Shown one piece after another: positions 31,563 through 60,500 of a stretch of DNA of 64,000 bases. The notes below the pieces were generated by a model that saw only the letters and a list, made by a program, of their open reading frames with translations, made no database searches and was not told where the DNA came from. Location of the stretch: NCBI GenBank assembly GCA_028713125.1, contig JAQTOU010000002.1:398583-462582 (forward strand), written 5' to 3'. This DNA is from Elusimicrobiales bacterium. Its GTDB lineage: Bacteria; Elusimicrobiota; Elusimicrobia; Elusimicrobiales; UBA9959. Numbering within the stretch: the stretch's first letter is position 1; each line of letters starts with the position of its first letter. Both the position numbers and the translations under genes were made by a program.

Positions 31563-32401
31563 CAGCCGGAAAAACACTTAAAGAAGCCCTCTCACGTCTC
31601 GCAGCCGCCGGGGTGGACGAAGCCGAACTGAACTCCCAGTGGCTGCTTGCTGAAGCGATGGGCGTGCCGCGCCTGAACCTCCTCGCCGACCCCTCCCTCC
31701 CGGTCCCCGCCGCCGCGCTTCGCAAATTTAATAAAGGCCTCGCCCTCAAAGAGCAGGGCCTGCCTCTGGCCTATATCCTCGGCTGGCAGGATTTCCGCGA
31801 TATCCGGATAAAAGTGGATAAAAGAGTCCTCGTCCCGCGCCCGGAGACGGAAGAGCTGGCCGGGTTCGCCGCCGATTTCCTGCGGACCCGCAAAGGCGAG
31901 CTCTCGGTGATGGATTACGGCGCCGGCAGCGGGGCCATCGGCCTCTGGTTAACTAAAGAATTTCCCAAGCTTCGCGTTAAAGCCGTAGAAAAATCCGCCA
32001 GGGCCCTCGCCTGCGCCGCCGAGAACGCCGCCGCATTGGGCCTCGCGGCGCGGATGGAATTCATAAGGGCCTCCACGCTGCAAGGCCTGAGCGCGAACGT
32101 CGACCTCATAGTTTCAAACCCGCCCTATATCCCCACCGGAGTCATCCCCGGCCTCGCCCCCGAGGTCCTGAGCGAGCCTCGCATGTCCCTGGACGGCGGC
32201 GGGGACGGCCTCGACGTGGCCCGTATGCTGGTGAACCTCGCGCCGTCGAAGCTGAAGAAAGGCGGAGCGCTACTCCTTGAGCTGAGCGGCGGCCAGGCTA
32301 AAAAACTTATGGACGCCCTGCCTGGGAAAGTCTGGAAAGAAAAGCGTACCCATAAAGATCTCAACGGCATCGAAAGATTCGTTTTCGCGCGGATTAAATA
32401 G
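31559..32401 (+). CDS. prmC: release factor glutamine methyltransferase
   Basis: 280 aa; SAM-binding MDYGAGSGAIG and catalytic NPPY; 4-nt overlap with prfA. Confidence 0.88.
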   Translation: MTAGKTLKEALSRLAAAGVDEAELNSQWLLAEAMGVPRLNLLADPSLPVPAAALRKFNKGLALKEQGLPLAYILGWQDFRDIRIKVDKRVLVPRPETEELAGFAADFLRTRKGELSVMDYGAGSGAIGLWLTKEFPKLRVKAVEKSARALACAAENAAALGLAARMEFIRASTLQGLSANVDLIVSNPPYIPTGVIPGLAPEVLSEPRMSLDGGGDGLDVARMLVNLAPSKLKKGGALLLELSGGQAKKLMDALPGKVWKEKRTHKDLNGIERFVFARIK

Positions 32402-32418
32402 GCGCAAAAGAGGGACCC

Positions 32419-33675: not shown

Positions 33676-33700
33676 GTCCGGGGGCGCGAAGAAGACGCAA

Positions 33701-36017: not shown

Positions 36018-38105
36018 TTGATGCTAAATAAGGTTTTAATTGCGCTTTTTGTGTGGACGGCGACGGCTCTCAGCGCCGCCGCCTACGACCTGCCTTCTTC
36101 GACCGGCACGCACAGGGTGTACTTCGAGGCGGACTCGGCCGGCTTTAACGAGTATTCCCGCGCCATAGACCTGGAGGGGAACGTCCGGCTGGAGGAGTTT
36201 TCCGAGAGCGGCAAGCAGCAGAAGCTTATAAGGGCCAGGAACCTTTCCGTGAATATGGCCAGCCGCACCGTCGTCGCCCCTTCCGATTTCGTGATGGACG
36301 ACGACACGGGCACGGTTTACGGCAAGAGCGGCTTCGTCGATTACGGCTCTGAAAAGGGCAGGATAAACGACGGGCGCTTCGCCTATAAGAATTTTATCAT
36401 CAAGGGGCGGGTGGTGGAGTTCGACAAGTCGGAATATACCTATAAGAAGGCCAGCATAACCAGCTGCGACGAGGAGCCCCCGCATTACAGGCTCAGGGCT
36501 TCGCGCCTTTACCTGGTCCCGGACCGCTATTTCCTCGCCTACAATACCGTATTTTTCGTGGGAAAGATCCCGGTGTTCTACTTCCCGGTGGTTTACCGGC
36601 CTATAGGCGGCGGAACGCCTTTCGTCAGCATTTTCCGCCCCGGCTACGATCAGCGCAACGGCTTTTTCGTCAAGTCCAGCTACATCTTCCGCGTTAACCG
36701 GGAGACGCGCGCCAAGCTGTACCTGGATTATTTCGCGAAGCGCGGTTTCGGCACGGGGGGCGAGCTGGATTACCGCCGCCCCGAAAAAAACATCACTAAC
36801 GTGTCCGTTTACCGCATCCGCGAGTACAGCGGCGTCAGGGACCGGTGGGGCGTGAACGGGGGCTACTGGCATTTGTTCAACCGCTTCAACGAGTCCGACC
36901 CGGCCCAGTATTACAGCCAGGGCTTTTTCCGCCTGCTTTCGGACCCCAAGGTGAACAATAATTTCTTCAGGACCAACCCTTTCGCCGTAAGCCCGGACGA
37001 GCAGGCCAGCGTGGCCCTCACCCGCAAGACCAACTATACCGTGACCCGCCTGAGCGCTTACGGCAGGGAGACTCACACGCCGGATTTCGAGAAATTCCGG
37101 AAAGCCAACAGCTCCCTCCCGAGGCTGGATTTTAACACGGTGCCTTTCAGCGTCCTGCGCCTGCCTGTGCTGAACTCTTTTTCAGGGTATTTCGAGAACG
37201 GCAGGGATGAGGGCAGGGACTACGCGCAAAAGCGGGGGAACGGGGTCTGGACCGTATCCAAGTCCGTGCCGCTGGTCAGGCGTGTCACGCTGTCTCCGTC
37301 CGTGTACTACGACCAGTCCGTCTTTATCTCGACTAATGCCGGCGGCAACGATACGTGGACGGGTCGCTACGGCGGGGGGGCTACGCTGCGCTACGACAGG
37401 TTCTGGGGCTCCTTCGACCTGGGCTACGCTTACAGGCGCCGCCTGCGCGATAATAAGCTGCGGGAAGACCTGGGGGCGGCGGATAAAGGGCAGGAGACAA
37501 GCTCGCTTTCCTCGCAGCTGTTCGTGATGCCGCGGTTCAATACTTATTACAAGCTGTCCACGGCGTACGATATGCGCGACTATTTCAGGGCTTCGTTCAC
37601 GAAGCGGCTGGCGCCCCTTATCGCCGAGGTTTATTACGCGCCGCGGCCTAATGTGGATTTTTTCGCGACCGAGACCTACAGCCTGTCCGGCGGGAGCAAG
37701 AGCTTCGTTACGCAGATAAATTTCGGCGGCAAGGAGAATTACATCGGCGGCGGCATCGCTAATTACAGCAGCGCCCCCCGGGAGTGGGTTTTCAGCAATG
37801 TCCTCGGCTTCCGTCCGTGGCGCGGGTCCGGCTGGCGCGCCGAGACCGTGCTGCGCTACCGGCTCAAGTCGGAGGGACATTTCAATTACAGCGATTTTAA
37901 ATTCTTCGAAAAAGGGATCACTCTTTACCGGGATTTCCACGATTTCCGCACCAAGTGGGATTACAGGGAGCGCTCCGGAGGCGTCAGGGAGTTTTATTTC
38001 TACCTGAACCTGAAAATAAGCGAGCCCGCGCGCAAGGACGACCTGGAGGAGAGGTCCCGGCAGTACTGGCACCCCTGGCGGAAGGACGGCGAGGTCAGGG
38101 ACTGA
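36018..38105 (+). CDS. lptD: LPS-assembly protein LptD
   Basis: 695 aa; signal peptide; OstA-like N-domain followed by ITSCDEEPPHYRLRASRLYLVPDRY..FFVGKIPVFYFP and a long Y/R/F-rich barrel region. Confidence 0.75.
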   Translation: MMLNKVLIALFVWTATALSAAAYDLPSSTGTHRVYFEADSAGFNEYSRAIDLEGNVRLEEFSESGKQQKLIRARNLSVNMASRTVVAPSDFVMDDDTGTVYGKSGFVDYGSEKGRINDGRFAYKNFIIKGRVVEFDKSEYTYKKASITSCDEEPPHYRLRASRLYLVPDRYFLAYNTVFFVGKIPVFYFPVVYRPIGGGTPFVSIFRPGYDQRNGFFVKSSYIFRVNRETRAKLYLDYFAKRGFGTGGELDYRRPEKNITNVSVYRIREYSGVRDRWGVNGGYWHLFNRFNESDPAQYYSQGFFRLLSDPKVNNNFFRTNPFAVSPDEQASVALTRKTNYTVTRLSAYGRETHTPDFEKFRKANSSLPRLDFNTVPFSVLRLPVLNSFSGYFENGRDEGRDYAQKRGNGVWTVSKSVPLVRRVTLSPSVYYDQSVFISTNAGGNDTWTGRYGGGATLRYDRFWGSFDLGYAYRRRLRDNKLREDLGAADKGQETSSLSSQLFVMPRFNTYYKLSTAYDMRDYFRASFTKRLAPLIAEVYYAPRPNVDFFATETYSLSGGSKSFVTQINFGGKENYIGGGIANYSSAPREWVFSNVLGFRPWRGSGWRAETVLRYRLKSEGHFNYSDFKFFEKGITLYRDFHDFRTKWDYRERSGGVREFYFYLNLKISEPARKDDLEERSRQYWHPWRKDGEVRD

Positions 38106-45568: not shown

Positions 45569-45607
45569 AAAACTTTGTTGACATGCGTCAAGTCTATTTA
45601 GTATTTT
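45556..45607 (+). promoter_or_regulatory. CCTAAGTTACATT box, 9 nt, TTGACA-N18-TATTTT promoter for the 1669-aa surface protein gene
   Basis: TTGACA at 45578-45583 (also part of the palindrome TTGAC-atgc-GTCAA), TATTTT at 45602-45607; about 90-nt leader with GGAGGG Shine-Dalgarno before the ATG at 45706. Confidence 0.45.
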
Positions 45608-45705: not shown

Positions 45706-48700
45706 ATGAGCTCATTCACCAAAATAATCCTTGCGGCGGTCCTGTTCGCCGCTTCTTCTGGCTTGGTCTCGGCGGCTCCTCCCACGCTGAAGGTTCATAT
45801 CCAAAAATCTGACTTGAGCCCCGTCCAGTACGTGACGGTCGCCGCGATAGAATTCGGCATGAACGGCCCTTCGACTTACACCCAAGTAGGGCTTACCGAC
45901 ATCGGCGGCGATGTGACCTTTACTCTCTCCAGCGGAACATACGGAAGGAGCTATAACCTCTACTACAGCTCCCACGGCTTTTCTCCTTCCATCTCCGATC
46001 AGTTCAATAACCCGGAATACGACCCTAACAGGTATGTGTGGGCTATGGGTTCTCAGGCGTATTTTTCCACTTTTACTATAACCCAGCTCGCTCCGTCCGA
46101 AGTAGGCGGAAGGCTGATACAGCAGTTTATAGGCGCTTCTACGGGTACGGTGCTGTTCGGCGGCGTTTACAATATGGTCTCCCAGATGCAGGGTGGTTCG
46201 GGTATTGTTCTTACAAATTCCGTTGCCGGATCCACCGATACCCTGGTGGTTGATAACGTGCCGTTCGCTGACGCTAACACTTACAATATCGGCCTTTACG
46301 ACCCGAAAAAGAATAAAGGTATCGGCCGAAACGTTATGACGGCCTTGAGCGCGGGGACTCCCGTGATCGCCTATCTTGCCGCCAGCAATGCCGCCCTTAA
46401 CTTTGACCAGTCGGTCCCCCCTGCCAGGGTAGAAACCAAGACGCAGCAGGGCGGGGAACCTACCGCCGGCGCGAGCGTAGAGGGCGTGCTGATGAGCACC
46501 AATTCCACGCCTATAGGCTATATGGGCCTTGAAGTGAAAGGCTGCGGCGGGTCGTACAATTGGCAGACTTGGGCGCATGCCGACCAGAACGGCCGCTTCC
46601 AGCTTTACGGCCTTACCCCCGGCGTCACCTACTACGTCAACGCCATGGGCGGCTGCACCTGGAACAATGACACGCACGAAAGCAAATGCTATGCACCTTT
46701 CAGCAGCCCCAATTATAAATTGAACGATATGTGCACCGGGGTAGATAATTCCCTGGCAACGCCGAATGACATCGTTTACAGCGTGGCCAACAGTTCGGAA
46801 GTTATATATAAGATAATTACCCTTGATGAAATGCCCAGGAGCATAGGGCAGATCCGTGTTTACGTCAGGTCCACCTCGGGCGTCCCGATGCCCAATTCCA
46901 ATGTGAATATAAACCCGGACGGCTCGCCGTGGCCCAATAACCCGACCAGCTGCCAGAGCACCAACTTCTTCAATAACTATAGTTCCAGCGCCGGTTACTC
47001 CAACCTTAATGTAAATACCTCTGCCACCGGCTACGCCCTTTTGGACGGGCTGCCCAGCGGTAACTACACCCTGAACGTAAATACTCCTTTCTCTAATAAT
47101 AGCGGCGGCCCTTCCGCGCCCTTCAACGGGAACGGCGACGACTTTACCGCCTTCGGCATGAATGGCGGCGGCCCCGGGATGGATTGGACCCAGGCCCACT
47201 GTTCCGGCACCGGCAAGAACGATTACCGTATTACCATTGATACCGACCCGGTCACCAATGGCGGGCAGACTTTCCATATTTACAATAGCAGCGGCAGCCA
47301 CGTTCAGTTCGCCGCCGGCGGCGCTATCGTAACCGATGGAAGCGGCGTCAATATGTCCTCTATTACCTATATAGTGGAAGCCGGCGCCATCAATATGTCC
47401 GGACTGGTCAGGGGCACGCTCCGTTTCCCCGGTATAACCGATCTCAGCAACAACCCGGTAACGATATCCGTGTTCCCGCAGTGCATGAATATGGGCCCCG
47501 GCAGCAGCTGCCCTCCCGGCAACTTATATTCCGAGGTCCGCAGCGGAGCAAGCAGCTACGATTACTCCATAAATGTCTCCAGCGGCTACTCCTATTATAT
47601 GAATGTGACCGCCAGCGGCTGGGGCCGCGTAAACCGCGGCGGGGGTAATAATAATATCAACCTCGCTTCGACCGGTACGGCCGTAGTAGACATGGACTTC
47701 GTCCCGGCCGGCTCGATCTCCGGAACCGTTTATAAACCCGGCGGGACGGAGATCTTTACTCCATCCTCCAACCAGTGGGTCTGGATAGACGCTAACAGCA
47801 ATAACGGCTGGACCGGCACGCAGCTTCAGAAGGACGGGACTTTCGCCATGAACGACGTCCTGCCCGGAGTGAACCGGATCAGGATAAACGTCAGCGGCGG
47901 CGGTCCGGGCGTTACCACTTTTAACTACGCCCTTCCGAATCCCGCTCCTTCCGTTATGGTTACCGCGAACTCTTCGACCACGCTTAACCTTAACCTTGTT
48001 AAGGCCAATTATGTGGGCGTCGATGTTTTCATATCCTCTTTGCCGGCGCGGAGCATGATGAAAACCGGCAGGGAAACCGTGCTCGGGTTCAAGGTAATTC
48101 CCCTGCCTTCCGGCACCGTGCTTAAGGGCGAAACTATAGCCAAAATGCTTACCGGCGGAGACGAGGAAGAGATGCGTATGAACTATTCTTCCGCGACCCT
48201 CCCCGGCGATGAGACCGGGCGCTGCGGCAGCCCCTGGCCCGGCGGTTTCTGCGCGATGAGTTTCCCGTCGCCGGCTGTTTATGACTTCTACCTGATGCGC
48301 GCCGGCGATATGGGCAAAGGGGAAGGAGCCTCGGCTGACAGCCCTTATCCTCACTTCACGCTTATCAGTTCTTCCAAGAACGTTGTGATAGATGACGCCC
48401 ATGCAAAGGGCCTCGTTCGCCCCGGGCAGGGCGTAGGTTTATCCAGCGGCGTTGTTGTAAATCTTACCCCGTCTACGAACCAGCATGACAGGGGCAATGC
48501 GACCCTTGCCGGGCGCGTCACTGCCGCGAACTTCTTCAGGAAAACGGACTATGAAGCCACCGGCGGAGACTTCGAGAACTTTGTAAAGTATCTCCCTGTC
48601 CTTTCGCTCTACGACGCTAACGGAGTTTTTGCCGCGGCGGGCGTAGTGCTGCCGCCTCCCGACTATATAGCCACGCATGACCTGAACAACGACTTCCAGA

Positions 48701-50715
48701 CCAAATACGCCGAGAGCTACGAAGCGTTCTCAGCGCTATTAGGCGGATCTCCGACCGGCTACGGCTTCGAGATCCGCGCGCTTGCCCCGTCGACCTGTTA
48801 TACCGCAGTACTGACTACCCCCAACTACCCGCCCTACCAGGAAAAGGTCTGTATGGGAGTTAACGGTTCGACAAAAACAGTGACCACCATAAACATGGAT
48901 ACCGCTGTGGGCGCGGGCGCCACGCTTTCGGGCGTGGTGACCACCACCGGAACTCCGGTGAAGCTGGCCAATGCCGAGATACAGATCTCCGGCGAAGGCG
49001 TAGATACCCGGTCGGTAGTTACCAGCTCGGTCGGCTACTACAAGTTCGAGGGTCTGCCCGAGGGCGCGGTAAGGATAAAGGTTTCGCTGAGCGGCTACTC
49101 CGCGAGCGAAGCCGAGGAAAGCCTTGTCGGCCATAATACCTATACGCAGAACTTCGCGCTGTTCCCTGCCGACGGCTCAATAACCGGCACGGTCTACTCG
49201 CAGAAGCTGCCTTTCTCCAAGGTACAGCCGGGAGCCATCATAGTGGCCTATGACGATACTTATAACGTCAATAACCCGACCAAGCCGCTGCCCCTGATGA
49301 AGACCATGACGGGCTCGGACGGAACGTACAAACTGGAAAACCTGATCGCCGGCGACGTCTATAAAGTGTTCCTTAAAGTCCCCGGCAAGTATACGCTGAA
49401 CCAGACGACTACGGCCGCGGCCGGTATTGTCGCCGGGGTTGACTTCACCATGCTGGCGAAGCCCCTGGACCTGGAGATATTCGCCAAAAAGGTCGGCGAT
49501 GATGCCACGGGCTCTTATGAGTTCACGGTACTCAACCCGCAGGACTTCAAGCAGGGCGAGGCAAGGTGGGCGCCCCAGACCGGTTTCTCGTTCGGCGCGG
49601 CTACCGTGCTCAACCTGGAGAAGCTCTCCAGCGGCGAACTGCGCGGCTCGATACCGCTTAGCTCGCTCGCCTCTAACATAACTTACATCCTGCAGGGCAA
49701 TGCCACGTCTTATTCCAATAAGACCGTTTCCAGGCAGATCCTGTTCGGTAAAGCCTACAAAGGCAGCGCCGAGCAGCATATCGACGACACTATCCTGGGT
49801 GACGACTCCGACGACGGTTTCGGCCGCAAGAGCAATGAGGCCCCCATGGATAAGAGCGGTGACGACGCCTCGGCCCTGATGTTCCCGGCCGGCGCTGTGC
49901 AGGTGATCTCTTCCGGGGCGATCCCGACCTGCTCTTTCAAGGGCGAGGGCAAGGATTCCCCCGCGGTGGCCGATAAAGTAGCGGCGCTGGGCGCGGACGC
50001 CTTCGCCGGCAACCTTTATACCGTGGACATGACCAGCGCGGTCATCAATACCGGCAAGGAAATAGAGCTGACGCTGGCTTATGACAAGAGCACGTCCAAC
50101 CTTAACGACCTGTCAGTGTCTCAGTATAATGACACCACCGCCAAGTGGGAACAGGTCCCCGGCGTGGCTACTATTAACCCGGTGAAAGGCACGGTGAAAG
50201 TAAAGCTCAAGAAGCTTGCCTCGGTGCTTTCCAGGCCTAACGGCTATGTGAGCGTCTCCGATGGCCGTCAGTACGTGGTGAGGCCGCAGTCGGGCGGGAG
50301 CAGCAGCTCCGCCGGCACGTTCGCGGTGGTCAGGCCCTCCATCGCCGGGAACGCTTTCGCCGGCAAAAAGATAAAGGTGTTCAACTACCCGAACCCCTTC
50401 AACCTGAAGGACAAGGCCATCTCCAATAATAACGGCGCGGCCCTGCCCGGCACGGTCAACGGCACGGTGATACACGTAGAGGTTCCCGCCGGTAACGGCG
50501 GCGCGGGCCATGTGAAGATCTACACCCTGTCCGGCGAGCTTGTGAAGGATATTAAAGTGGACTTCACGGACGGCGCCTACAACTACGTGGGCTGGGACGG
50601 CCACAATGCCGGCGGCCAGGAAGTCGCCAACGGCGTGTATTACGGCGTCGTGGAGATGTCCGGCAAGTCCGTCAAACGCGAAGACGCCACCTTCAAGATG
50701 GCCGTGATAAAGTAG
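45706..50715 (+). CDS. giant secreted surface protein with CarboxypepD_reg-like beta-sandwich repeats and a T9SS-type (FlgD-Ig-like) C-terminal domain
   Basis: 1669 aa; signal peptide MSSFTKIILAAVLFAASSGLVSA; several modules of the type G.V....G.P...A.I......T.SDG.Y.L..L..G.Y.V (e.g. GVVTTTGTPVKLANAEIQISGEGVDTRSVVTSSVGYYKFEGLPEGAVRIKVSLSGY); S/T/N/G-rich. Confidence 0.8.
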   Translation: MSSFTKIILAAVLFAASSGLVSAAPPTLKVHIQKSDLSPVQYVTVAAIEFGMNGPSTYTQVGLTDIGGDVTFTLSSGTYGRSYNLYYSSHGFSPSISDQFNNPEYDPNRYVWAMGSQAYFSTFTITQLAPSEVGGRLIQQFIGASTGTVLFGGVYNMVSQMQGGSGIVLTNSVAGSTDTLVVDNVPFADANTYNIGLYDPKKNKGIGRNVMTALSAGTPVIAYLAASNAALNFDQSVPPARVETKTQQGGEPTAGASVEGVLMSTNSTPIGYMGLEVKGCGGSYNWQTWAHADQNGRFQLYGLTPGVTYYVNAMGGCTWNNDTHESKCYAPFSSPNYKLNDMCTGVDNSLATPNDIVYSVANSSEVIYKIITLDEMPRSIGQIRVYVRSTSGVPMPNSNVNINPDGSPWPNNPTSCQSTNFFNNYSSSAGYSNLNVNTSATGYALLDGLPSGNYTLNVNTPFSNNSGGPSAPFNGNGDDFTAFGMNGGGPGMDWTQAHCSGTGKNDYRITIDTDPVTNGGQTFHIYNSSGSHVQFAAGGAIVTDGSGVNMSSITYIVEAGAINMSGLVRGTLRFPGITDLSNNPVTISVFPQCMNMGPGSSCPPGNLYSEVRSGASSYDYSINVSSGYSYYMNVTASGWGRVNRGGGNNNINLASTGTAVVDMDFVPAGSISGTVYKPGGTEIFTPSSNQWVWIDANSNNGWTGTQLQKDGTFAMNDVLPGVNRIRINVSGGGPGVTTFNYALPNPAPSVMVTANSSTTLNLNLVKANYVGVDVFISSLPARSMMKTGRETVLGFKVIPLPSGTVLKGETIAKMLTGGDEEEMRMNYSSATLPGDETGRCGSPWPGGFCAMSFPSPAVYDFYLMRAGDMGKGEGASADSPYPHFTLISSSKNVVIDDAHAKGLVRPGQGVGLSSGVVVNLTPSTNQHDRGNATLAGRVTAANFFRKTDYEATGGDFENFVKYLPVLSLYDANGVFAAAGVVLPPPDYIATHDLNNDFQTKYAESYEAFSALLGGSPTGYGFEIRALAPSTCYTAVLTTPNYPPYQEKVCMGVNGSTKTVTTINMDTAVGAGATLSGVVTTTGTPVKLANAEIQISGEGVDTRSVVTSSVGYYKFEGLPEGAVRIKVSLSGYSASEAEESLVGHNTYTQNFALFPADGSITGTVYSQKLPFSKVQPGAIIVAYDDTYNVNNPTKPLPLMKTMTGSDGTYKLENLIAGDVYKVFLKVPGKYTLNQTTTAAAGIVAGVDFTMLAKPLDLEIFAKKVGDDATGSYEFTVLNPQDFKQGEARWAPQTGFSFGAATVLNLEKLSSGELRGSIPLSSLASNITYILQGNATSYSNKTVSRQILFGKAYKGSAEQHIDDTILGDDSDDGFGRKSNEAPMDKSGDDASALMFPAGAVQVISSGAIPTCSFKGEGKDSPAVADKVAALGADAFAGNLYTVDMTSAVINTGKEIELTLAYDKSTSNLNDLSVSQYNDTTAKWEQVPGVATINPVKGTVKVKLKKLASVLSRPNGYVSVSDGRQYVVRPQSGGSSSSAGTFAVVRPSIAGNAFAGKKIKVFNYPNPFNLKDKAISNNNGAALPGTVNGTVIHVEVPAGNGGAGHVKIYTLSGELVKDIKVDFTDGAYNYVGWDGHNAGGQEVANGVYYGVVEMSGKSVKREDATFKMAVIK
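50368..50712 (+). other. C-terminal sorting-type domain (T9SS type-A CTD / FlgD Ig-like pattern)
   Basis: KIKVFNYPNPFN....HVKIYTLSGELVKDIKV......YNYVGWDGHNAGGQEVANGVYYGVVEMSGKS...FKMAVIK matches the YPNPF ... IYd..G..V ... WDG.n..G..v.sGVY pattern of Por-secretion C-terminal domains. Confidence 0.6.
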
Positions 50716-50741
50716 GACCAGATTAAGACTGAGGAGAGACT

Positions 50742-51650
50742 ATGAAATATAAAATATGGCTTTCAGCGGCTTTAATGCTGGCAAATACGGCGGCTTACGC
50801 CTCCGGCCCCGGGACCACCGGCGCTGCGTTCCTCAAAGTGGGAGTGGGGGCCAGGGAACTGGCCCTCGGGTCCGCGGCGAGCGTGCTTACCGAGGGCGCG
50901 AACGCGGCTAACTGGAACCCCGGCAAACTCGCCGAGGTGAAGGGCAAGAACCTGAGCGCGAGCTACAATATGCTCTTCATCGACGAGTCTCAGGGCGCGC
51001 TCGCCTACGCTACCCCGCTCAGCGGCGGGAGCGCGGTGGTCGGCGCGGGTATCAACTACCTGACCGTCTCGAATATCGAAAAGCGGGCCAGCGATACCAA
51101 TACCCCTGATTCGAAGTTCAGCAATAATAACATGGCCTTCACTCTGTCCTATGCCCGGCCCGAAGTAAAGCCCGGCCTGGCCCTGGGCGCGAACCTGAAG
51201 TACATCTCGCAGAAACTGGACACGGCGGACGATAAAGCCATAGCGCTGGACCTCGGCTCCACCTACAAGGTTAACGACACCTGGACCGCCGCTTTCGTCA
51301 TGCAGAACCTTGGCAGCAGCATAGGTCCGGATAAACTGCCGCTTACCTTCAAGGGCGGCGCGGCCAGGAGTTTCCTGGACGGGAAGCTGGCCGCCGGGGC
51401 GGACCTGGACTGGCTGGCCCAGGACGAGCGGTTCTACCTGTCTTTGGGCGGGGAGTACCTGCTGAACAAGAATTTCGCCTTCAGGGCGGGCTACCAGTTC
51501 GGCCACAGCGCGGATAAGCTGGGCAGCGGCCTGGTGGGGCTCGGCGCAGGCATCGGCCTCAAGTTCGACCGCTTCGCGCTCGATTACGCCTATGTGCCTT
51601 TCGGCGACCTGGGCGATACGCACAGGATGACGCTTGGATTTAACTTTTAG
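50742..51650 (+). CDS. PorV/PorQ-like (UPF0164-like) outer-membrane barrel
   Basis: 302 aa; signal peptide; GPGTTGAAFLKVGVGARELALGSAAS......NWNPGKLA N-terminal signature; C-terminal ..HRMTLGFNF; starts 27 nt after the CTD-bearing gene. Confidence 0.7.
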   Translation: MKYKIWLSAALMLANTAAYASGPGTTGAAFLKVGVGARELALGSAASVLTEGANAANWNPGKLAEVKGKNLSASYNMLFIDESQGALAYATPLSGGSAVVGAGINYLTVSNIEKRASDTNTPDSKFSNNNMAFTLSYARPEVKPGLALGANLKYISQKLDTADDKAIALDLGSTYKVNDTWTAAFVMQNLGSSIGPDKLPLTFKGGAARSFLDGKLAAGADLDWLAQDERFYLSLGGEYLLNKNFAFRAGYQFGHSADKLGSGLVGLGAGIGLKFDRFALDYAYVPFGDLGDTHRMTLGFNF

Positions 51651-51761
51651 TCCGTAGTTTGGCGGCAGCAGGCAGGTTTCCCGCGCTTTCCCTTAAAGGG
51701 GCCAGTGCGGGATTCTGCCGTTCAGGGTCTGGATTCTAACTCAATAAATATAGGACAAATC

Positions 51762-52985
51762 GTGAAAAAAATATTACTTTCAGCGCTTTTGCTCGCGCCG
51801 GCCTGCGCCGGGGCCAAAGGTTTCGAACTCCAGGGCAAGCTCGATCTTTTCGGGGGCCAGTACTTTTTTCAGAACCAAAACGGAGCTTTTAACGGCTACG
51901 GCGTGCTGGACGCCCAACTGGCCAAAAGCCAATCGTCCAGTTCCGGTTATTTCATCAGCCTCCGTTCGATGTACACCGGCTTCAAGCAGGTGAACGAACT
52001 GGCCGGCGGCGGAACGCTTTTCCAGCAGAGCCTGGACAATTCCCTCGGCTTCAAATGGATAAGGCGCTATGAAGGCGGCTATTCCTTCAAGCCGCGCGTC
52101 GGGATAAAGAGCCAGCTTTTCAGGGAGACCAAGGACGAGAAATGGGGCAAAGGCCTTTACGACCTTACCCGCTACGAGGCCGGCCTGACGCTGGAGCGCA
52201 AGACGCGCCTCGGCCTGTCCACGCCGTGGATCTACCAGTTCTCCTGGGACGTCTATTATAACCGCTATACCCGCTTCAAGACCCTGGCCAGCCAGTACGG
52301 GCAGGAACTCGCCGCGCCCAATCCCGGCAGCCGTACCCTCGACACCGTCACCAACCAGTTCTCTTACGACAGCGAGTTCGACCTGCCGAACTTCGTCCGC
52401 CTGGACCTCTTCGCAGCCGTATCCCTGGTCGGCTACCAGGACCAGAAAGTCATAAACGCGGACGGCAACTACCTCTCCTCCATGCGCTCGGATTCCTACC
52501 AGGCGCTTAATGTAGGGCTCAGCAAGCGCTATAACGATATAGACTTCCTCGGAGGGGTGCGCCCTGTGATGAGCGTCCGCCTCGGCCTGGCCAATAATTT
52601 CTCCAACCAGAGCCACCTGGATACGGACCCGGCCCACCTCAGGTTCACGCGCGCTTATTACGATTACTGGGAGGAGCGGCTTTCTCCCGGCGCCCAGTTT
52701 ACTTTTATAGATTCCGGCCTCATCGCCCGCCTGAATTATGAATTCGCCATCCGGCGCTATACCGGCAGGCTGGCCCAGAAATCAGACGGCGCTTACAGCC
52801 GCGACAAGCTCGGCCAGTATTCGGGGAGCTTCACCGCCGAAGCCGCCTACCCGCTGTTCCGCCACATTGATATCAAGCTTCAGGGCACCTGGGCGAACTC
52901 GAGCTCCAACAACCACTACGAGCAGGTCTACCGGTACAATTATTACAGTTCGATGTATTTCGCGGGTCTGGAATGGAGGTTTTAA
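51762..52985 (+). CDS. putative outer-membrane beta-barrel protein, uncharacterised family (paralog 2 of 3)
   Basis: GTG start at 51762 (VKKILLSALLLAPACAGA signal peptide) preferred over the ATG at 51705; ETKDEKWGKGLYDLTRYEAG aligns with ETKDEKWGDGLFDYTTLSFG in the ORF at 56237; ends ..YFAGLEWRF. Confidence 0.55.
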   Translation: MKKILLSALLLAPACAGAKGFELQGKLDLFGGQYFFQNQNGAFNGYGVLDAQLAKSQSSSSGYFISLRSMYTGFKQVNELAGGGTLFQQSLDNSLGFKWIRRYEGGYSFKPRVGIKSQLFRETKDEKWGKGLYDLTRYEAGLTLERKTRLGLSTPWIYQFSWDVYYNRYTRFKTLASQYGQELAAPNPGSRTLDTVTNQFSYDSEFDLPNFVRLDLFAAVSLVGYQDQKVINADGNYLSSMRSDSYQALNVGLSKRYNDIDFLGGVRPVMSVRLGLANNFSNQSHLDTDPAHLRFTRAYYDYWEERLSPGAQFTFIDSGLIARLNYEFAIRRYTGRLAQKSDGAYSRDKLGQYSGSFTAEAAYPLFRHIDIKLQGTWANSSSNNHYEQVYRYNYYSSMYFAGLEWRF

Positions 52986-52988
52986 ATT

Positions 52989-54617
52989 ATGAAATCCATA
53001 TACTTTTTCACCGTCCTTTTTTTAGCCGCGCAGACCGCGAGCGCCTCCGCTCCCAGGGAAATAGTATTGGTTCCGGAAGGCGCCGTTGAAGCCCGCCAGG
53101 GAGCTGCCTCCGCCTGGGCCCCGGTCCAGGGCCGGACCAGGCTGGCGGAAGGCTCCGAGATCCGCACCGGCAAAAATTCAAAAGCCGCCGTTTTCTTTTC
53201 TGACGGCTCCACTTTCCTTCTCGGCAACAGCAGCATTTTCGCCGTAGAGGACACCAGCAAGAAGAAAGCCGGCTTCAGCCTTAAGGTAGGCCGCCTCAAA
53301 GCCATCGTTTCCGGCTATTTCGCCAGCCGTTTCCAGGTGCGCACCCCGGCGGCCGTTTGCGCCGTGCGCGGCACCGAATTCGATATCGAAGTGGGCAAAG
53401 ACGGCGCCACCGGGATGAACGTCACCGAAGGCCTCGTGGAAGTGAACGATTCCAAGGGCGCGATGGCCGTGGTTTCTTCGGAAGAAAAGATAAAGATAGG
53501 CATGGACGGGATGTCCAGGCCGGAAGGTATTTCGCTTAATGACGAGCGCGCCGGCGAGGCCGCCCGCCCTATGGCCGTGCGCCAGGAAACGGCCCGCGAG
53601 CGCACCCGCACCATGCTGGAAGAGCTGCGCAACCGCGAGCTCAAGGCCAATGAGTCGCAGCTGGGCAAAGATTCCATAGACGCTTTCGGCCGCCGCGTGC
53701 GCCTCGAGGAATACCTCCTGAGGCCCAGCGACAGCGAGTTCAAACTTCTGTTCCTGAGCCGCCGCGAGGAGTCCCACAGGCTTGACTGGGGCCACCTGAT
53801 AGAGCGGTTCAACTCAAAGATCCCGGACGATATCAACGAAGTGGGCAAGGTGATAGACAGCATGTATTTCTCCGCTACCGCCCCGACCAACTGGATGAAA
53901 TATTTCGAAGTCTATATGACCAATACGGTGGACAGCATAAAGGAAACCATAGACTTCACCGCGCCCGTAGCTATTAACTTCGCCGGCTACGGAGCCGGAA
54001 CGCGCTATTATCCCGGCTCCATAGACTACAGGCAGATCCTTTCCGGGCCCGGGGTGGCGGTGGCTGCAGGCGCCGGCTCGCTCACTAATACCGGCCTGAC
54101 CTCGCTGGCCGCTGACGAGCGCGTCCAGTTCAGGCAGATACAGGACTACAATACCACTACCGCCGGCCAGTTCACGTTTACCCAGAAAGTCGTGAACGCT
54201 TCCGGTATCCTGAACGATATGTACCAGGTTACTTTGAACCAGGCCAGCCTGGCAGATGTAGGGGCAGGCGGGACAGCGACTCTTTATAACGCCGCTATAG
54301 ACCCGGAAGCCCTTACGCCGGCGTACAGCAACTACCCGAGCGGCCCCGGGAAAGCGGACTTCCTCGCTTACTCGCTCTACGCGGACGGCTCTTCCGTTTC
54401 CTCGCGCAAACTGCTGGTGTCGAACGAAGGGGATATCCTTAATATCGGCGGCTCGGCCAACTCGAACACTTTCCTTAAAGAGGGCAGTTTCAACCTTGAA
54501 CTGGTTTTAGGTTCCAGCCTCTTCCAGGGCCGGAACATAGATATTCTGTTCGCCCCTGAAATACTTACCCAGAAGAAGGACGCGACCACGACAGCCGACA
54601 GTTTTGCTATAAATTAG
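52989..54617 (+). CDS. secreted FecR-domain protein (paralog 2 of 3)
   Basis: 542 aa; signal peptide MKSIYFFTVLFLAAQTASASA; FQVRTPAAVCAVRGTEFDIE; DAFGRRVRLEEYLLRP; C-terminal GRNIDILF. Confidence 0.7.
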   Translation: MKSIYFFTVLFLAAQTASASAPREIVLVPEGAVEARQGAASAWAPVQGRTRLAEGSEIRTGKNSKAAVFFSDGSTFLLGNSSIFAVEDTSKKKAGFSLKVGRLKAIVSGYFASRFQVRTPAAVCAVRGTEFDIEVGKDGATGMNVTEGLVEVNDSKGAMAVVSSEEKIKIGMDGMSRPEGISLNDERAGEAARPMAVRQETARERTRTMLEELRNRELKANESQLGKDSIDAFGRRVRLEEYLLRPSDSEFKLLFLSRREESHRLDWGHLIERFNSKIPDDINEVGKVIDSMYFSATAPTNWMKYFEVYMTNTVDSIKETIDFTAPVAINFAGYGAGTRYYPGSIDYRQILSGPGVAVAAGAGSLTNTGLTSLAADERVQFRQIQDYNTTTAGQFTFTQKVVNASGILNDMYQVTLNQASLADVGAGGTATLYNAAIDPEALTPAYSNYPSGPGKADFLAYSLYADGSSVSSRKLLVSNEGDILNIGGSANSNTFLKEGSFNLELVLGSSLFQGRNIDILFAPEILTQKKDATTTADSFAIN

Positions 54618-54629
54618 GGAGGAAAGTTA

Positions 54630-54685
54630 CCTTAGTAACATTTACCGTTGGTCATCTTGACATTGGCCGGCTCATATCTTAAGAT
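54630..54685 (+). promoter_or_regulatory. CCTTAGTAACATT box, 14 nt, TTGACA-N17-TAAGAT promoter for the third FecR-domain gene
   Basis: Box at 54630-54642 (11/13 identical to the box at 45556-45568) lies within the palindrome GTTAC-ctta-GTAAC (54626-54639); TTGACA 54657-54662; TAAGAT 54680-54685; AAGGAG Shine-Dalgarno at 54748. Confidence 0.5.
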
Positions 54686-54758
54686 ATGCGCTGAAGCTAT
54701 TGTTTGTTTTTTCACTTATCCCGGGGGCCGGTCAATGGCTTTATTTCAAGGAGTTTCT

Positions 54759-56198
54759 ATGAGACTGATAATTGTTTCAGCGGCTCTGCTTTTTGCCTGC
54801 CGCTACTGCGACGCCGCCTATGTTTACTCGCTGCGCGGCGACGTGGATATCAAGAAAAGCGGCTCCACCGAATGGACGCGCATAGATGCGGACCAGAATA
54901 AAACTCCGCTGAAGCAGGGCGACGAAATGCGCACTTCCAGGGCTTCCACGGTGGAGATCTTCATGGACGACGGCTCGAAGGTGAAACTGGCGCCTCTTTC
55001 GGCCTTCAGGATGTCCGCGGAGGACAAAGAGACCGTTTCTCTGGGGCTCTATTTCGGCCGGGTGCGCTCCTGGGTAAAGAAATTCTCCAAAAAATTCGAA
55101 GTCCGGACCCCGTCGGCCGTCTGCGCCGTGCGCGGCACTGATTTCATGGTCTCGGCGGACGCGGAAGGGAACAGCCGCGTCGAAGTTTACGAGGGCAGCG
55201 TGCTTACCGGGGACTCCCGGGGCAATTCCTCCCTCGTGAGGGAGGGCCAGTTCTCCGAGATCCCCAGCGGCGGCAAGATGAAAGACCCCGACTCCAATCC
55301 CAATGAGCCCGCCGACATGAACTCCTCGCTCGGAGACGCGAGGCAGATAGCCAGGGCCGAGATCTACGGCGAAATTTCCAAGGAGGACGTGCTGGCGCGG
55401 GCGCAGGAGGAGATGCAGTCGGCGGAGTACCAGAGCCGCAAGGTGGCGATAGACGCTTTCGGCAACCGGGTCCGCATGGAGGAATACACTATCAGGCCCG
55501 CCGCCGACCAGTTCAAGTACGTGGTGCTGAACACCCGCGGGGACCGCTTCGATTTCGGCAAGATCCTGTTCACTTTCGACACTGACCTGCCGGCCGACCT
55601 CTCGCAGGCCACGCAGAATATGATCTCCTCTCCCGGCTCCGCCGCGCCGCAGTGGCAGCTTATCGCCATGAACAGCGTGATGAGCAATACCACCGATAAA
55701 GTTACCGAGGATGCCAGCGGCGGCAGCATGGCCTATAACGGCAGCCTGACCGACCCGCGCTATAATTTGGTTTTCGGGAATTATTCATTCTACGCGGCCG
55801 GCCCCGCGGAGGCCAATGATAACGGCGGCCTTGGGAAACTGCTCTGGGCCAAGACGAATTATAATGTGCCGCTGAACACGGAAAGCTCCATCTCCTACCT
55901 GGGCGGTTCGGCGCCGGCGCTCGAATCCTCCAACCCGGCCGATTTCCATTCTATCTCTAAGAATACCTACAGCGACGGGACCTGGATAGCTGCGGAGGAC
56001 TTCGTGCTTTTTAACGACGGGAGCATCCTCTCGCCCGGGGATTTCAGCAGCGGCCTGAGCGCCGGGAACAGCCTGGACGCAATAACCGACAAGCTCAATT
56101 TCCAGCGGGTTTACACCAGCTCACTTTTCGGCGGGCGCAAGATAGACCTGATATACTCCGCCAAGCTGCTCAAGGAGATCGGCCTGCTGCGCTTCTAG
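54759..56198 (+). CDS. secreted FecR-domain protein (paralog 3 of 3)
   Basis: ATG at 54759 (MRLIIVSAALLFACRYCDA, preceded by AAGGAG) preferred over 54648; FEVRTPSAVCAVRGTDFMVS; DAFGNRVRMEEYTIRP; C-terminal GRKIDLIY. Confidence 0.7.
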   Translation: MRLIIVSAALLFACRYCDAAYVYSLRGDVDIKKSGSTEWTRIDADQNKTPLKQGDEMRTSRASTVEIFMDDGSKVKLAPLSAFRMSAEDKETVSLGLYFGRVRSWVKKFSKKFEVRTPSAVCAVRGTDFMVSADAEGNSRVEVYEGSVLTGDSRGNSSLVREGQFSEIPSGGKMKDPDSNPNEPADMNSSLGDARQIARAEIYGEISKEDVLARAQEEMQSAEYQSRKVAIDAFGNRVRMEEYTIRPAADQFKYVVLNTRGDRFDFGKILFTFDTDLPADLSQATQNMISSPGSAAPQWQLIAMNSVMSNTTDKVTEDASGGSMAYNGSLTDPRYNLVFGNYSFYAAGPAEANDNGGLGKLLWAKTNYNVPLNTESSISYLGGSAPALESSNPADFHSISKNTYSDGTWIAAEDFVLFNDGSILSPGDFSSGLSAGNSLDAITDKLNFQRVYTSSLFGGRKIDLIYSAKLLKEIGLLRF

Positions 56199-56236
56199 AG
56201 GTTTTGCGCTGAACAAAAAAATGGAACGAATAATTT

Positions 56237-57472
56237 ATGGTAAATAAACATAATCCCTTTATAGTGCCGTCCCTGATCCTTCTTTCACTTTTAGGCCCTG
56301 CCGCGCCGCTCTACCCGGCGTCGAAGATCCTTACCGTCGCCGACGTCTCCCTCCTGGGCGGGAAATATTTCCTCGATTCCCAGGCCGCTTCTTTCCAGGG
56401 CCGGGTGGACGCTTTTGTGTCCCCGACTATCAAGCTGTCGGAGAACAGCGATCTTATCCCGGTTTACTCCGGCAACTATTCCGGTACCCAGGACATACAG
56501 GAGCTCGCCGGCGGCGGCGTGCTTACCCGGAAGCGGATGACCAATACTTTTTCCCTTAAATATATCTACACAGACGAGTTCAACAAGTACAAGCCGCGCC
56601 TCTCCTACTCGAAGGCGGGCATAAAGGAAACCAAGGACGAGAAGTGGGGGGACGGCCTTTTCGACTATACCACCCTGTCCTTCGGTTTCGAGGCCGAGCA
56701 GGAGCGCCCGCGCGGGACCTTTACCGAATCCTACGACTATTACAAGGTGACCTACCCCAATTACAGCACACTGCTCTCGCAGTCGCAGTCCGTCTTCAAC
56801 GACACCACTACCTTTAACCAGCTTTCCACCAATGCCGGCGCGAACCCGCTGGACAATACCAGCCACCGCCTGGGCTTCGTTTACTCCTGGTTCCCGGAGC
56901 CGCTCAATATGAAGGCCGGCTACGATTTCACCTACCGCACCTACGGCGACCAGGCCGTGGCGGCCAGGCCCGTCACGGGGCAATCTCCTTTCAAGAGCGA
57001 CAAGCGCGCCGATATCATGCAGAACTTCAGCCTCAGGGCCAGCCGCGCCCTTAAGCCGCTTTTCCTCAGTGCCGGGGCGCGCCTGGGCTGGCTCAGCTCC
57101 AACCAAGGCTCGTACGATTCCACCCGCAGCAAGTATATGGAAGATTATTACAGCTATGTGGACCTTTCTTTAAGCCCGGCGATGACGCTCGCCCTCCCGA
57201 GCGGCGCGCAGTTCAATTTCGGCGTGGACTGGCGGCAGGTCTGGTACCAGGGCCGCCCGGCTCAGGCCGATACCGGCACCTACGGAAAAGCGGAGATCAA
57301 GCAGACCTGCTGGCTTACCTCCCTTTCCGTCCGCTACCCGCTGGCCAACAGGTTCTTCGCGCGCGCGGCCTATAACTACCAGGTTTCGAGCTCGAACATG
57401 CATTACGAGGAGAGCTACCGGTACAATTACCGGGCCAGCACCTATCTGATGGGGATAGAGTGGGAGTTCTGA
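56237..57472 (+). CDS. putative outer-membrane beta-barrel protein, uncharacterised family (paralog 3 of 3)
   Basis: 411 aa; signal peptide; paralogous to the ORFs at 51762 and 14197; ends ..YLMGIEWEF. Confidence 0.55.
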   Translation: MVNKHNPFIVPSLILLSLLGPAAPLYPASKILTVADVSLLGGKYFLDSQAASFQGRVDAFVSPTIKLSENSDLIPVYSGNYSGTQDIQELAGGGVLTRKRMTNTFSLKYIYTDEFNKYKPRLSYSKAGIKETKDEKWGDGLFDYTTLSFGFEAEQERPRGTFTESYDYYKVTYPNYSTLLSQSQSVFNDTTTFNQLSTNAGANPLDNTSHRLGFVYSWFPEPLNMKAGYDFTYRTYGDQAVAARPVTGQSPFKSDKRADIMQNFSLRASRALKPLFLSAGARLGWLSSNQGSYDSTRSKYMEDYYSYVDLSLSPAMTLALPSGAQFNFGVDWRQVWYQGRPAQADTGTYGKAEIKQTCWLTSLSVRYPLANRFFARAAYNYQVSSSNMHYEESYRYNYRASTYLMGIEWEF

Positions 57473-57531
57473 GCGGGGGAGTCTGAGGAAATAAATTTAT
57501 CGGTACCGTAAGTTTCAGCCGGAGAATAATT

Positions 57532-60500
57532 ATGCGAAAGATAAAAAACATTTTCATCAACCTGCTGGGGGCGGCGCTTTTCGCCGCCGGCTCCGCCGGG
57601 CTGGCCCAGGCCCAAAGCCCCTTTACCGGGAATTTCGCCGCCGGCGGCGTAACCTATGACGGCGGCCCCTACCAGATCGGGATGATGCAGCGCGGCGCCG
57701 GGATCGCCGTGGATACTATAACGATAAACGGTCCCTATACTTACACCGTAGCGGTTTCTTCGAACGGCGGCTCGGCCGACTACCTTATAGCGAAGTACGA
57801 TCCCGCCGGTGTGGTGCTTTCTTCCGTTTCTTTCTCCAAGGGCCCGTCGAATATGGAGCAGCCGGCCATAGCTGTCGGACCTGACGGCTCCGTCTATGTC
57901 GCGGCTGACGTGGCCGAGCAGCCCATGACGTATTCTTATTCTTTTGACAGCCTCCTGCTTAAATTCAACCCCAGCCTGGGTTTCGTGTCCTCCACCACTT
58001 TCAGGGTCGCCGCTGGCGGCGCAAACGACGGCTTTTATGCCGTGGCCACCGACGCAGCAGGAAATGTTTACGCGACTGGAACCTCCAATAACGGGACAGG
58101 CGGCAGCGGGAACGGCGAGATAGTCACTTTGAAATACGATCCCGCCCTGGTCTTCATCTCGTCCGCCGTCTTTAATATCGAAGGGGCCGGCCTCCATGAT
58201 ATAGCCCGCGGCATCGCCGTAAATTCCGCGAACGTTTATGTGGCCGGGATGTCCTATACCGCGCCCGGGATCAATCCTGTCTGCACCATACTCAGGTACA
58301 CCCAGGCGATGACTTTCGTTTCCTCCGCCGCTTTTGCCGGCGGCTTCGGGGCCTGTAATGCCATAACGGCGGTGCAGAGCGCCGGGGCCGTCTTTGTGGC
58401 CGGTTATCTGGACGCCGGTTCTTTCAACACGGCTTCCATAGTGGCGAGATATACCAACACCCTGGTGTTCGAGTCCTCGGCCGGCTATAACGGCGGAGGC
58501 TATAACATAGCCAACGGCCTGGCGGCCGACGGGGCGGGCGGCGTTTACGTGACCGGCAGGTACGACGGCGTCACCGAGAACTTCGTCCTGTTCGCCTACG
58601 ACAATTACCTGAACTTTATCTCTTCCACCGGCTATGACAGCGGCTACTCCGATATAGGTTATGGCCTGGCCGCGGACGCCGCCCGGAACGTGTATGTCGC
58701 CGGTTATTCCAATAACGGCATTAACGACGTCGTGAAAACTATCAGGTACACCCAGGCGGACCTCGCACCCACGTTTCCCGCCGCGGCGACGCAGCGCGTC
58801 TGGATCGGCGGCGGCGCCGACCTGGCCAGCGAACCCGGTAACTGGCTGAACGGTCTGCCCCAGCCCGGCGACGGCATACTTTATGACGCGGCCTATATCC
58901 CGAATGCCAGCCTGACATGGGACCTCGGGGCCTCCGTCCCGCTTTCTTCCGTCACTGTCAGCGGCGCCCTTCCGAGCGGCACGCTGATAGTCGCTTCGCC
59001 GCTGCTTGTCACCGGCGATCTCGTTTTGAACTCGCCTAACGCTGCCGTGCTCTTCGATTCGGGGAGCGGGATCTCCAGCGTCAGCGGTGAGGTTAAGGTA
59101 GACGCCGGAGTTTTCTCCGTCACCGCCTCCACGTTCATCTCCGTCACGACCTTTACCGTAAACGGCGGGACCTTCGACCTGGCCTCGGCCTATTTCATGG
59201 GCAACAGGCTGACCGTCAACAGCGGGGCGGCCCTCTCTCTCCGCGTCGCCGACCCGCTCTTTAATACTGAGCCGCCGGTCCTTACCAGCACCAGCCCTAC
59301 CTCAGCGCTCAAACTGACCGTGGACGGAACGGTCGACGTTTCCAGCTGCGTCATCGGGAGGACCTGGCATAAGGGCATCGATTTCGGGCCCGCCGTTTCC
59401 TTCACTAATTTCTCCAACGTTCTTTTCCAGGGGCCCCTGCTCCCCGGAACCACGGCTATTTATTTCGAGGGCGGCGCGCCTTACGTCACTTTCAGCAGCG
59501 TAAGTTTCGCCGACGCCAATATCTATTTCAACGTGAACGCCAGCCTGCTGAGCCCCGGCGCGAGCATAACCATGCTGTACTTCTCCGGCCCCAGGGCCGG
59601 CGCCTCCTTCGAGAACGATCCCTTCAGCTACGTGCAGTGGGGGCCGCCGGTAGTATATATTTCCACCGCCGACGTTTCGCCGGCCGCCTATTTAGCCGGC
59701 CAGGAAGCCGCGGCGCTAAGGATAACGCCTTATACTCTTTCGGGTTCGGCAGCTTTCACCGGGATGCAGATAGCCGTAAATCCAGCCGGCGCCTACACCG
59801 ATATAGCCTCGGTCGCCGTCTATAAAGACACCGACCTGGACGGAATCTGGAACGGCCAGGTGGACCAACTCCTGGCCGGCGGCCCGGTCACCTCCGCCAC
59901 TTTCAATTTCGACCTCAGCGGCGGGCAGCCCCCGGCCGCGCCCGGGCGCAAGCCCGCGGGGTTCCCCGGCTCTCCGGGCGGGATCGTGGATACGAACCCT
60001 ATCGGTCTTTTCATAACCCTGACGCCCGCTGTCGCGGCCGTGGGCAATAATGTCAATGTTTCTGTGGTCTCTTCCAACTCCTTTACCACAGGCGGCGACA
60101 TGGCGCAGCAGGCTATCTACCCCGTGGTTTCGGCTCCCAAACTGGTCAACTACCTGGCCGGCGTGACGACCCTCGCCGCCCCTGCGGGCGCCAACCTCAA
60201 TACGCTCAGCCTGGCCTGGACCTATCCGCAGGACATCGCCGCCGGGCATTACATAGTCCGCTATAGCACTAACCCGGCTGACCTCGCCGACCCCGATTCG
60301 ACCGATAACCAGACGGTGACTGATATCAGCGGCGTGACGGCCGGCTCCGTGGACAGCCTCGATCTATACGAGCTTCCCGTGGTGACCGACGGGCTGCGCG
60401 TATTGCCGCGCTACGCCGCGGTCTGGCTCTATAACGGGACGAGCACGTCCTCGGTTTCAAATTTGGTGCGGAACCTTTATTTCCCCGTGTCTTCCGTGAG

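Follow-up and report, generated by a model that had tools for sequence, protein, structure and literature searches.

A window of 64,000 nucleotides from the metagenome-assembled genome of an Elusimicrobiales bacterium (contig JAQTOU010000002.1) carries two adjacent genes whose products resemble type IX secretion system (T9SS) components: a giant secreted protein, named here GIANT1, and an outer-membrane β-barrel of the PorV/PorQ family. GIANT1 (45706–50715, + strand; 1669 aa) comprises a Sec-type signal peptide (cleavage site between …GLVSA and AP), a β-rich passenger of ∼1550 aa, and a C-terminal domain (CTD; 50368–50712, + strand). The barrel gene (50742–51650, + strand) encodes 302 aa, with a signal peptide (…AAYA, cleaved before SG) and a C-terminal Phe. 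An earlier interpretation made from the letters alone (the sequence-only reading) had placed the barrel gene 27 nt downstream of GIANT1; the two genes are indeed directly adjacent, but the gap between the stop codon (ending at 50715) and the next ATG (50742) measured 26 nt and contains a GAGGAG ribosome-binding site. Promoter-like sites were present in the 366-nt gap upstream of GIANT1, among them a sigma-70-like candidate, TTGACA-18-TATTTT (45578–45607, + strand; a consensus match only), and no terminator-like sites were found on the + strand between the genes from 45706 to 57532. Because of the short gap with its ribosome-binding site and the lack of an intervening terminator, GIANT1 and the barrel are taken to form an operon and are probably co-translated from one mRNA.

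The final 115 residues of GIANT1 had been recognized in the sequence-only reading as following the pattern of T9SS CTDs. The motifs concerned, YPNPFN, HVKIYTLSGELV, and WDGHNAGGQEVANGVYYGVV, were each located in this region, which can be summarized as PNPF … IYTLSGELV … WDG.N..G..VANGVYY … FKMAVIK-COOH. When the domain was scanned alone, its top matches fell at the C termini of the models for PorZ and PorU, and no match to PF18962 was obtained in the single-sequence scan. Because the single-sequence scans were sub-threshold, we built a family profile, A2, from an alignment of 35 diverse copies of the CTD from related loci. Its consensus (PNPF … I.IYN.AGELV … WDG.N..G..VASGVY … K.AVIK-COOH) contains the invariant positions P15, W81, G94, and Y96 and the nearly invariant K115. 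Compared with proteins of known structure, A2 matched the CTD of PorZ (5m11, residues 668–758; E 2.7e-11) and that of PorU (6za2, residues 1055–1154; E 6.6e-11), with the FlgD Ig domains behind these (E 5e-5). The individual members gave the same picture, with 33/35 matching the C terminus of the PorZ model, 32/35 that of PorU, 24/35 TIGR04183 (best 8e-12), and 17/35 PF18962; the type-B model TIGR04131 was matched weakly by 2/35 CTDs, and that of the window was not one of them. The location is also that of a sorting domain, with 69 of 73 matches stopping no more than 15 residues from the C terminus and with a Sec signal at the N terminus of GIANT1. By family-level homology, the C-terminal domain of GIANT1 is a divergent type-A-like T9SS CTD. 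In the proposed test against TIGR04183 and FlgD_ig, the window copy by itself fell below both cut-offs, and TIGR04183 was matched at the level of the family. In the solved translocon, a Lys is the single conserved type-A CTD residue that touches PorV (PMC10994853). A nearly invariant Lys of the A2 CTDs, which lies in the last strand six residues before the C terminus, is consistent with such a contact and may be the counterpart of that residue.

The sequence-only reading had also assigned the downstream gene to the PorV/PorQ type, and the family models bore this out. The barrel scored 156.6 bits against NCBIfam NF033709 (PorV_fam; cut-off 90), with residues 25–302 covering model positions 1–326, and it narrowly passed the Pfam PorV model (28.5 vs a cut-off of 27). 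Among the more specific equivalog models for PorV, PorQ, and PorV2 (these include NF033710, NF033711, and NF052325), the best for this protein was PorQ. A profile of 25 barrel sequences, A1, matched PorV of Flavobacterium johnsoniae (6h3i_F) at E 1e-30 along the whole protein, in two collinear stretches corresponding to profile positions 1–215 and 233–303; the barrel is ∼100 aa shorter than that protein. The second-best match of A1 was TodX (E 7e-3), in line with the weak secondary matches of the barrel to the Toluene_X/TodX family, and no match to the PorP/SprF models was obtained at E ≤ 0.01. The protein is 100% identical to an NCBI entry named "PorV/PorQ family protein" and is also present on a Logan contig; its homologues bear the same family name and, down to ∼35% identity, come nearly all from Elusimicrobia. 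On these sequence comparisons the barrel is a distinct subfamily within the PorV/PorQ family, and its fold, a putative FadL-like barrel of 14 strands, is predicted from the collinearity with PorV, the signal peptide, and the C-terminal Phe.

To define how widely the pair occurs, species-representative genomes were scanned once with the barrel profile, which yielded 80 loci, mostly from Elusimicrobiota but also from Aerophobetes, one Lindowbacteria, one Ignavibacteria (L053), and unclassified metagenome-assembled genomes (MAGs). Adjacency was scored from all open reading frames (ORFs) and HMM coordinates as a same-strand, CTD-terminated ORF that ends −60 to +400 nt from the PorV-like gene. Among PorV-like genes with enough upstream sequence, 79/93 had a CTD-ending ORF immediately upstream; reciprocally, 76 of the 87 CTD-ending ORFs were directly trailed by a PorV-like gene, and the exceptions were mostly tandem cargos with a common barrel or threshold artefacts. 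This adjacency is far above chance, and the same CTD-barrel pair was present in independent gene calls on other contigs. The paired cargos have passengers of ∼250 to >2000 aa, which show no relationship to one another except within the GIANT1 family (∼1600–1750 aa), and the adjacency is kept across several phyla.

Several genomes contain two or three CTD-barrel pairs per locus. Pairwise identities among the CTDs correlated with those among the barrels next to them (Mantel r 0.85, with 0/999 permutations as high). Paralogous pairs within a genome showed 32–45% mutual identity in both parts (23% for one CTD pair), their best matches elsewhere reached 58–93% for the CTD and 40–99% for the barrel, one weak pair excepted, and the top matches of CTD and barrel usually belonged to the same partner pair. 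Judged by these identities, paralogous pairs within one genome stay cognate. As a separate observation, L069 (1868–10921), L061, and L064 encode two or three tandem CTD-ending proteins ahead of a single PorV-like gene, and in these genomes one barrel may serve a small group of neighboring cargos.

The passenger of GIANT1 behaves differently from the two conserved parts. It contains CarboxypepD_reg/prealbumin-like domains (residues ∼382–459 and 1073–1152), and a search of PDB sequences with the whole protein gave zero matches. Collinear orthologues of 1500–1800 aa were found in 42 genomes at 22–78% identity; the CTD is the most conserved segment along the protein, and the passenger evolves faster than both the CTD and the barrel. 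Against the near-identical strain L002, identity was 99% for the barrel, 94% for the CTD, and 74% for the passenger; two proteins encoded further downstream, U426 and FecR_A (described below), gave 93% and 78%, respectively. The ranking, with barrel and CTD slow and passenger and FecR_A fast, was repeated in more distant genomes. Rapid change in the passenger, with CTD and barrel constrained, is as expected for a surface-exposed protein on a conserved anchor. Among the surface proteins of these largely uncultured Elusimicrobia, GIANT1 is probably a major one that evolves fast.

The pair does not stand alone, and the conserved genes around it, ∼16-strand barrels and FecR-domain proteins, form a wider module that the sequence-only reading had not mentioned. 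Directly after the PorV-like gene, as in the near clade, lies the gene for U426, a putative outer-membrane barrel of ∼16 strands (51762–52985, + strand; 407 aa), followed by FecR_A, a secreted FecR-domain protein (52989–54617, + strand; 542 aa; PF04773, 58 bits). Then come FecR_B, a second secreted protein with a FecR domain (54759–56198, + strand; 479 aa as called), U411, a ∼16-strand outer-membrane barrel (56237–57472, + strand; AlphaFold2 pLDDT 84, pTM 0.78), and GIANT2, a secreted protein with SBBP repeats that is cut by the end of the window (57532–64000, + strand) and extends to 3938 aa on a Logan contig, where its C terminus gave a faint FlgD_ig match. The order in the window is thus GIANT1-PorV-U426-FecR_A and then FecR_B-U411-GIANT2. 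The longest ORFs of U426 and FecR_B begin at 51705 and 54648, respectively, but these starts are probably wrong, as the gene calls on the Logan contig (51762 and 54759) give proper signal peptides. With the CTD-ending gene, the PorV-like gene, the ∼16-strand barrel, and the FecR-domain protein abbreviated as C, V, U, and F, the pair is flanked by members of the U as well as the F family in 41/80 loci. The near clade shows the order C-V-U-F and a distant clade F-U-C-V; taxa further away (Aerophobetes and others) carry the C-V pair only, without U or F. Compared with window positions 45706–54617, the corresponding operon of L002 (4999–∼14000) differs past FecR_A, where FecR_B is truncated and U411 and GIANT2 are absent, and a further CTD-PorV pair lies at 15323–18767 of that locus; together with the diverged passenger and FecR_A, these differences would fit a hot spot at which surface proteins turn over.

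U426 and U411 (29% identity, E 3e-35) are paralogues of each other and of U400, which is encoded elsewhere in the window, and all three have a signal peptide and an aromatic C terminus. Pfam and NCBIfam scans of the three proteins gave no match. The homologues of U411 are unnamed or hypothetical proteins that lack Pfam domains; wherever a source is named it is Elusimicrobia, the only group in which the family has been met so far. A profile of U411 found nothing significant among PDB sequences, and a Foldseek search with its model returned just generic porin-like or secretion barrels (TM 0.4–0.5).

The three FecR-domain proteins of the window (starting at 52989, 54759, and 11574) have a signal peptide at the place where the anti-sigma domain and transmembrane helix of a FecR-type anti-sigma factor would be; the FecR domain (PF04773, 58–60 bits) follows directly after the cleavable signal peptide, with no N-terminal anti-sigma domain between. 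They lack the domain make-up of an anti-sigma factor of this type. In its predicted structure, residues 25–171 of FecR_A adopt the periplasmic PupR/FecR fold (6ovk_R, E 7e-7), a likeness to the FecR/PupR signaling proteins that is shared along with PF04773; unlike those proteins, FecR_A possesses no cytoplasmic anti-sigma domain or transmembrane helix and has an extra C-terminal domain of ∼300 aa. This added domain (residues 227–521) was modeled confidently (pLDDT mostly >90). Foldseek matched it to nothing in the PDB, sequence comparison gave no relative there either, and it may represent a new fold or family. By sequence, a FecR profile found nothing significant in the PDB and FecR_A alone gave no matches there. 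FecR_A also matched weakly the models of LipL45 and Lsa33, which recalls the LipL45-type FecR lipoproteins of Leptospira.

A second group of related genes, locus 1 (11574–18373), lies near the start of the window. It encodes a FecR-domain protein (11574–13427, + strand; 617 aa), U255, a small putative outer-membrane barrel with a signal peptide and the C-terminal sequence …HLNF (13417–14184, + strand), the U411 paralogue U400 (14197–15399, + strand; E 5e-14), and a PorV/PorQ-family barrel fused to HEAT repeats (15536–16978, + strand; 480 aa). The last of these had been noted in the sequence-only reading as a second PorV-like gene, and its score of 100.4 bits against NF033709 (cut-off 90) supports the assignment; the gene upstream of it is a U411-type barrel, not a CTD protein. 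Its HEAT_2 region (55 bits, residues 387–472) is joined to the barrel via a Pro/Ala-rich linker and is presumably periplasmic. Long PorV-like ORFs (437–555 aa) likewise occur in L030, L056, L066, L071, L072, L079, and L081. Just 3′ of the PorV-HEAT gene, a 451-aa secreted protein is encoded (17018–18373, + strand) in which no CTD was detected. Its N terminus weakly resembles the mosaic adhesive trimer fibre proteins of Bdellovibrio (27 bits vs a cut-off of 60), and it contains an internal duplication of ∼50 residues, in which …AAITSGKFGDERV.ISTGAFYGGFNA…QLV.LD..G.LPA… occurs twice. In L045, L046, and L050, U255 lies in one cluster with the giant/PorV module, and in the distant Elusimicrobia represented by L045, L050, and L055 the two loci of the window are fused in the order U255-U400-FecR-U411-giant(CTD)-PorV. 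This fused cluster suggests that the genes of both window loci belong to one envelope system. The remainder of the window is ordinary chromosome (GrpE-DnaK-DnaJ, SMC, PolA, Rho, RF, TolB, and others) and includes a 642-aa ORF without a Pfam match (32125–34056, − strand) and a 695-aa protein with only a weak LptC-related match (36018–38105, + strand; 19.8 bits vs 21). None of the T9SS core genes (those for SprA/Sov, PorK/L/M/N, PorU, PorZ, and PorT) was found within the 64-kb window.

On balance, we favor an interpretation in which GIANT1 and the barrel constitute a cognate cargo-carrier/anchor pair built from type IX secretion parts, and we regard this as reasonably probable. GIANT1 would be exported by Sec and its β-rich passenger would reach the cell surface, where the protein would be held non-covalently through binding of its uncleaved type-A-like CTD to extracellular loops on its own PorV/PorQ-family barrel. 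In T9SS, the carrier's extracellular loops are the site to which CTDs bind (PMC10994853). Across Elusimicrobia, the pair forms the core of a larger, conserved group of envelope genes. For the accompanying genes we offer a conjecture: the FecR-fold domain may dock, from the periplasmic side, on a barrel, and the U/FecR sub-module may aid passage across, or assembly at, the outer membrane. The homologies, gene order, conservation, co-diversification, and fast evolution of the passenger are observations; we infer the binding of the CTD to the barrel, its retention, the exposure of the passenger, and any roles of the U and FecR proteins.

Several results weigh against the cognate-pair interpretation. 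The CTD of the window by itself scored 15.4 against TIGR04183 (cut-off 23) and 25.5 against FlgD_ig (cut-off 27), and the barrel scored below the equivalog cut-offs for PorV (71.6/250), PorQ (102.7/220), and PorV2 (52.5/325); with its shorter chain, the loops of the barrel may bind the CTD differently from those of PorV. The Mantel correlation is inflated by the common species phylogeny of the two partners, and tandem duplication of the unit alone would give cognate-looking clades without functional specificity. The loci were ascertained via the barrel, so that barrel-less CTD proteins encoded elsewhere escape the count. Lastly, an anchor alone leaves unexplained how a 1669-aa protein crosses the outer membrane.

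The choice of "anchor" over "shuttle" derives from comparison with the characterized systems. PorZ and PorU are CTD proteins anchored to the outer membrane via PorQ and PorV (PMC5562754, PMC12365241), and the anchor role is favored because PorQ is the top-scoring equivalog model for the barrel, and PorZ and PorU are the best matches of the CTD; the 1:1 gene pairing, with two or three pairs per locus, likewise indicates an anchor rather than a general shuttle. The sequence-only reading had proposed a dedicated cargo-shuttle pair. The pair is dedicated, as proposed, and also conserved, modular, and co-diversifying, but a shuttle is not the best comparison: in Bacteroidota, PorV serves as one general carrier for dozens of dispersed cargos, and here each barrel paralogue is tied 1:1 to its cargo. 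In the PorZ-PorQ/PorU-PorV attachment complex of Porphyromonas gingivalis, the closest counterpart for both CTD and barrel, the passengers are unrelated to the one described here, which has no sortase or β-propeller signature; the present system further differs in its many paralogous pairs per genome, its Elusimicrobiota host, from which SprA and PorKLMN are not known, and a barrel that is shorter and below the equivalog cut-offs. SprB-SprF of F. johnsoniae provides a second likeness, a giant adhesin gene next to that of a dedicated carrier/anchor barrel, with several cognate pairs per genome (PMC9143113, PMC10994853); those type-B/PorP-SprF pairs contrast with a CTD that is type-A-like and a barrel of PorV/PorQ type. 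The general type-A shuttle PorV (LptO) is a homologous barrel (the 6h3i_F match), but it is one gene that serves many scattered cargos and works at the lateral gate of SprA, compared to the 1:1 pairing here. The remark in the sequence-only reading that cargo and porV do not normally form an adjacent pair needs qualifying: neighboring or cognate cargo and carrier genes are already on record for sprB-sprF and for further pairs of type-B CTD and PorP-like proteins (PMC9143113), and PorU and PorV of P. gingivalis have consecutive locus tags (PG0026 and PG27; PMC5562754).

As a rival explanation, the two genes could be coincidental neighbors, that is, a FadL-like transporter of hydrophobic compounds and a protein with a generic FlgD-type Ig domain that plays no part in sorting, co-transcribed simply as envelope proteins. 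The weak Toluene_X/TodX matches of the barrel, the match of the CTD to the FlgD Ig domains, and the failure of the window CTD to reach the T9SS cut-offs all agree with such an explanation. Against this, the PorV match is 28 orders of magnitude better than that to TodX, and the PorZ/PorU CTD matches are 6 orders better than that to FlgD; furthermore, the domain occupies the extreme C terminus, the adjacency persists with unrelated passengers in several phyla, and the two parts co-diversify. We consider coincidence very improbable. A complete T9SS is a more serious candidate. SprA/Sov, PorKLMN, PorU, and PorZ could be encoded elsewhere in the genome, with GIANT1 as ordinary type-A cargo, the barrel acting as a PorV that collects it at the translocon, and a sortase receiving it and removing the CTD. 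CTD and barrel alike have T9SS homologues, the 64-kb window is part of a contig of at least 729 kb so that core genes could lie outside it, and one related locus (L053) comes from an Ignavibacteria MAG, a lineage of the FCB group, where T9SS is found. The several barrel paralogues with one cargo each do not match a single general PorV, however, and the score of the barrel falls well short of the PorV equivalog cut-off. In addition, a survey of complete genomes detected T9SS solely in Bacteroidetes (PMC4793230), other work describes the system as specific to Bacteroidota/FCB (PMC12398890, PMC10994853), and a literature search for work connecting Elusimicrobia with PorV, T9SS, or the sorting domain found nothing relevant, nor did it find a phylum-wide survey of SprA. 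The sequence-only reading had taken the source to be a T9SS organism; it belongs to the Elusimicrobiota, a phylum with no reported T9SS (PMC4793230), and the window holds no core component. A canonical T9SS appears unlikely.

The opposite possibility, that the module is a self-contained export-and-anchor system, would account for the crossing step that an anchor alone leaves out. The FecR protein, the ∼16-strand barrel, the giant, and the PorV-like barrel would then suffice without SprA or PorKLMN, with the 16-strand barrel as the channel and the PorV-like barrel as receiver and anchor. The four families occur together in 41/80 loci in two internally conserved orders, a second F-U pair lies ahead of GIANT2, U411 is a confidently modeled barrel without a specific known relative, and the FecR fold (the 6ovk_R match) docks on outer-membrane barrels in cell-surface signaling. 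Nevertheless, Aerophobetes and others keep C-V without U or F, which indicates that U and F are dispensable for the pair, and nothing ties either of them physically to the giant. A 16-strand lumen would be narrow for a folded passenger of 1550 aa, an energy source is not evident, and FecR_A diverges as fast as the passenger (78% identity to L002, compared to 99% for the barrel), which is odd for a part of a periplasmic machine. We judge a self-sufficient system of this kind to be about as improbable as a canonical T9SS, and the cognate cargo-carrier/anchor pair, with the crossing step left aside, remains the interpretation that we favor.

These results place T9SS-type cargo-carrier pairs, conserved and arranged 1:1, in a phylum beyond the groups from which T9SS is known. 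They also identify three uncharacterized envelope protein families, namely U411/U426/U400, U255, and the FecR C-terminal domain, and the paralogous pairs provide natural cognate and non-cognate sets for studying the specificity code of CTD-carrier binding. As a broader and decidedly tentative suggestion, Elusimicrobiota and neighboring candidate phyla could use the carrier-cargo half of T9SS without the SprA translocon or the PorKLMN motor, coupled in Elusimicrobia to a lineage-specific ∼16-strand barrel and a secreted FecR-fold protein. If this were true, the module would represent either a minimal, T9SS-independent surface route for giant proteins or a surviving relative of the ancestral module of T9SS; if these genomes have no translocon, an unknown route would carry proteins of 1600–4000 aa across the outer membrane. 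Type IX secretion is regarded as an invention of Bacteroidota/FCB, and CTD-PorV recognition is understood only alongside the SprA translocon; the recognition between CTD and barrel may instead be an older, separable module.

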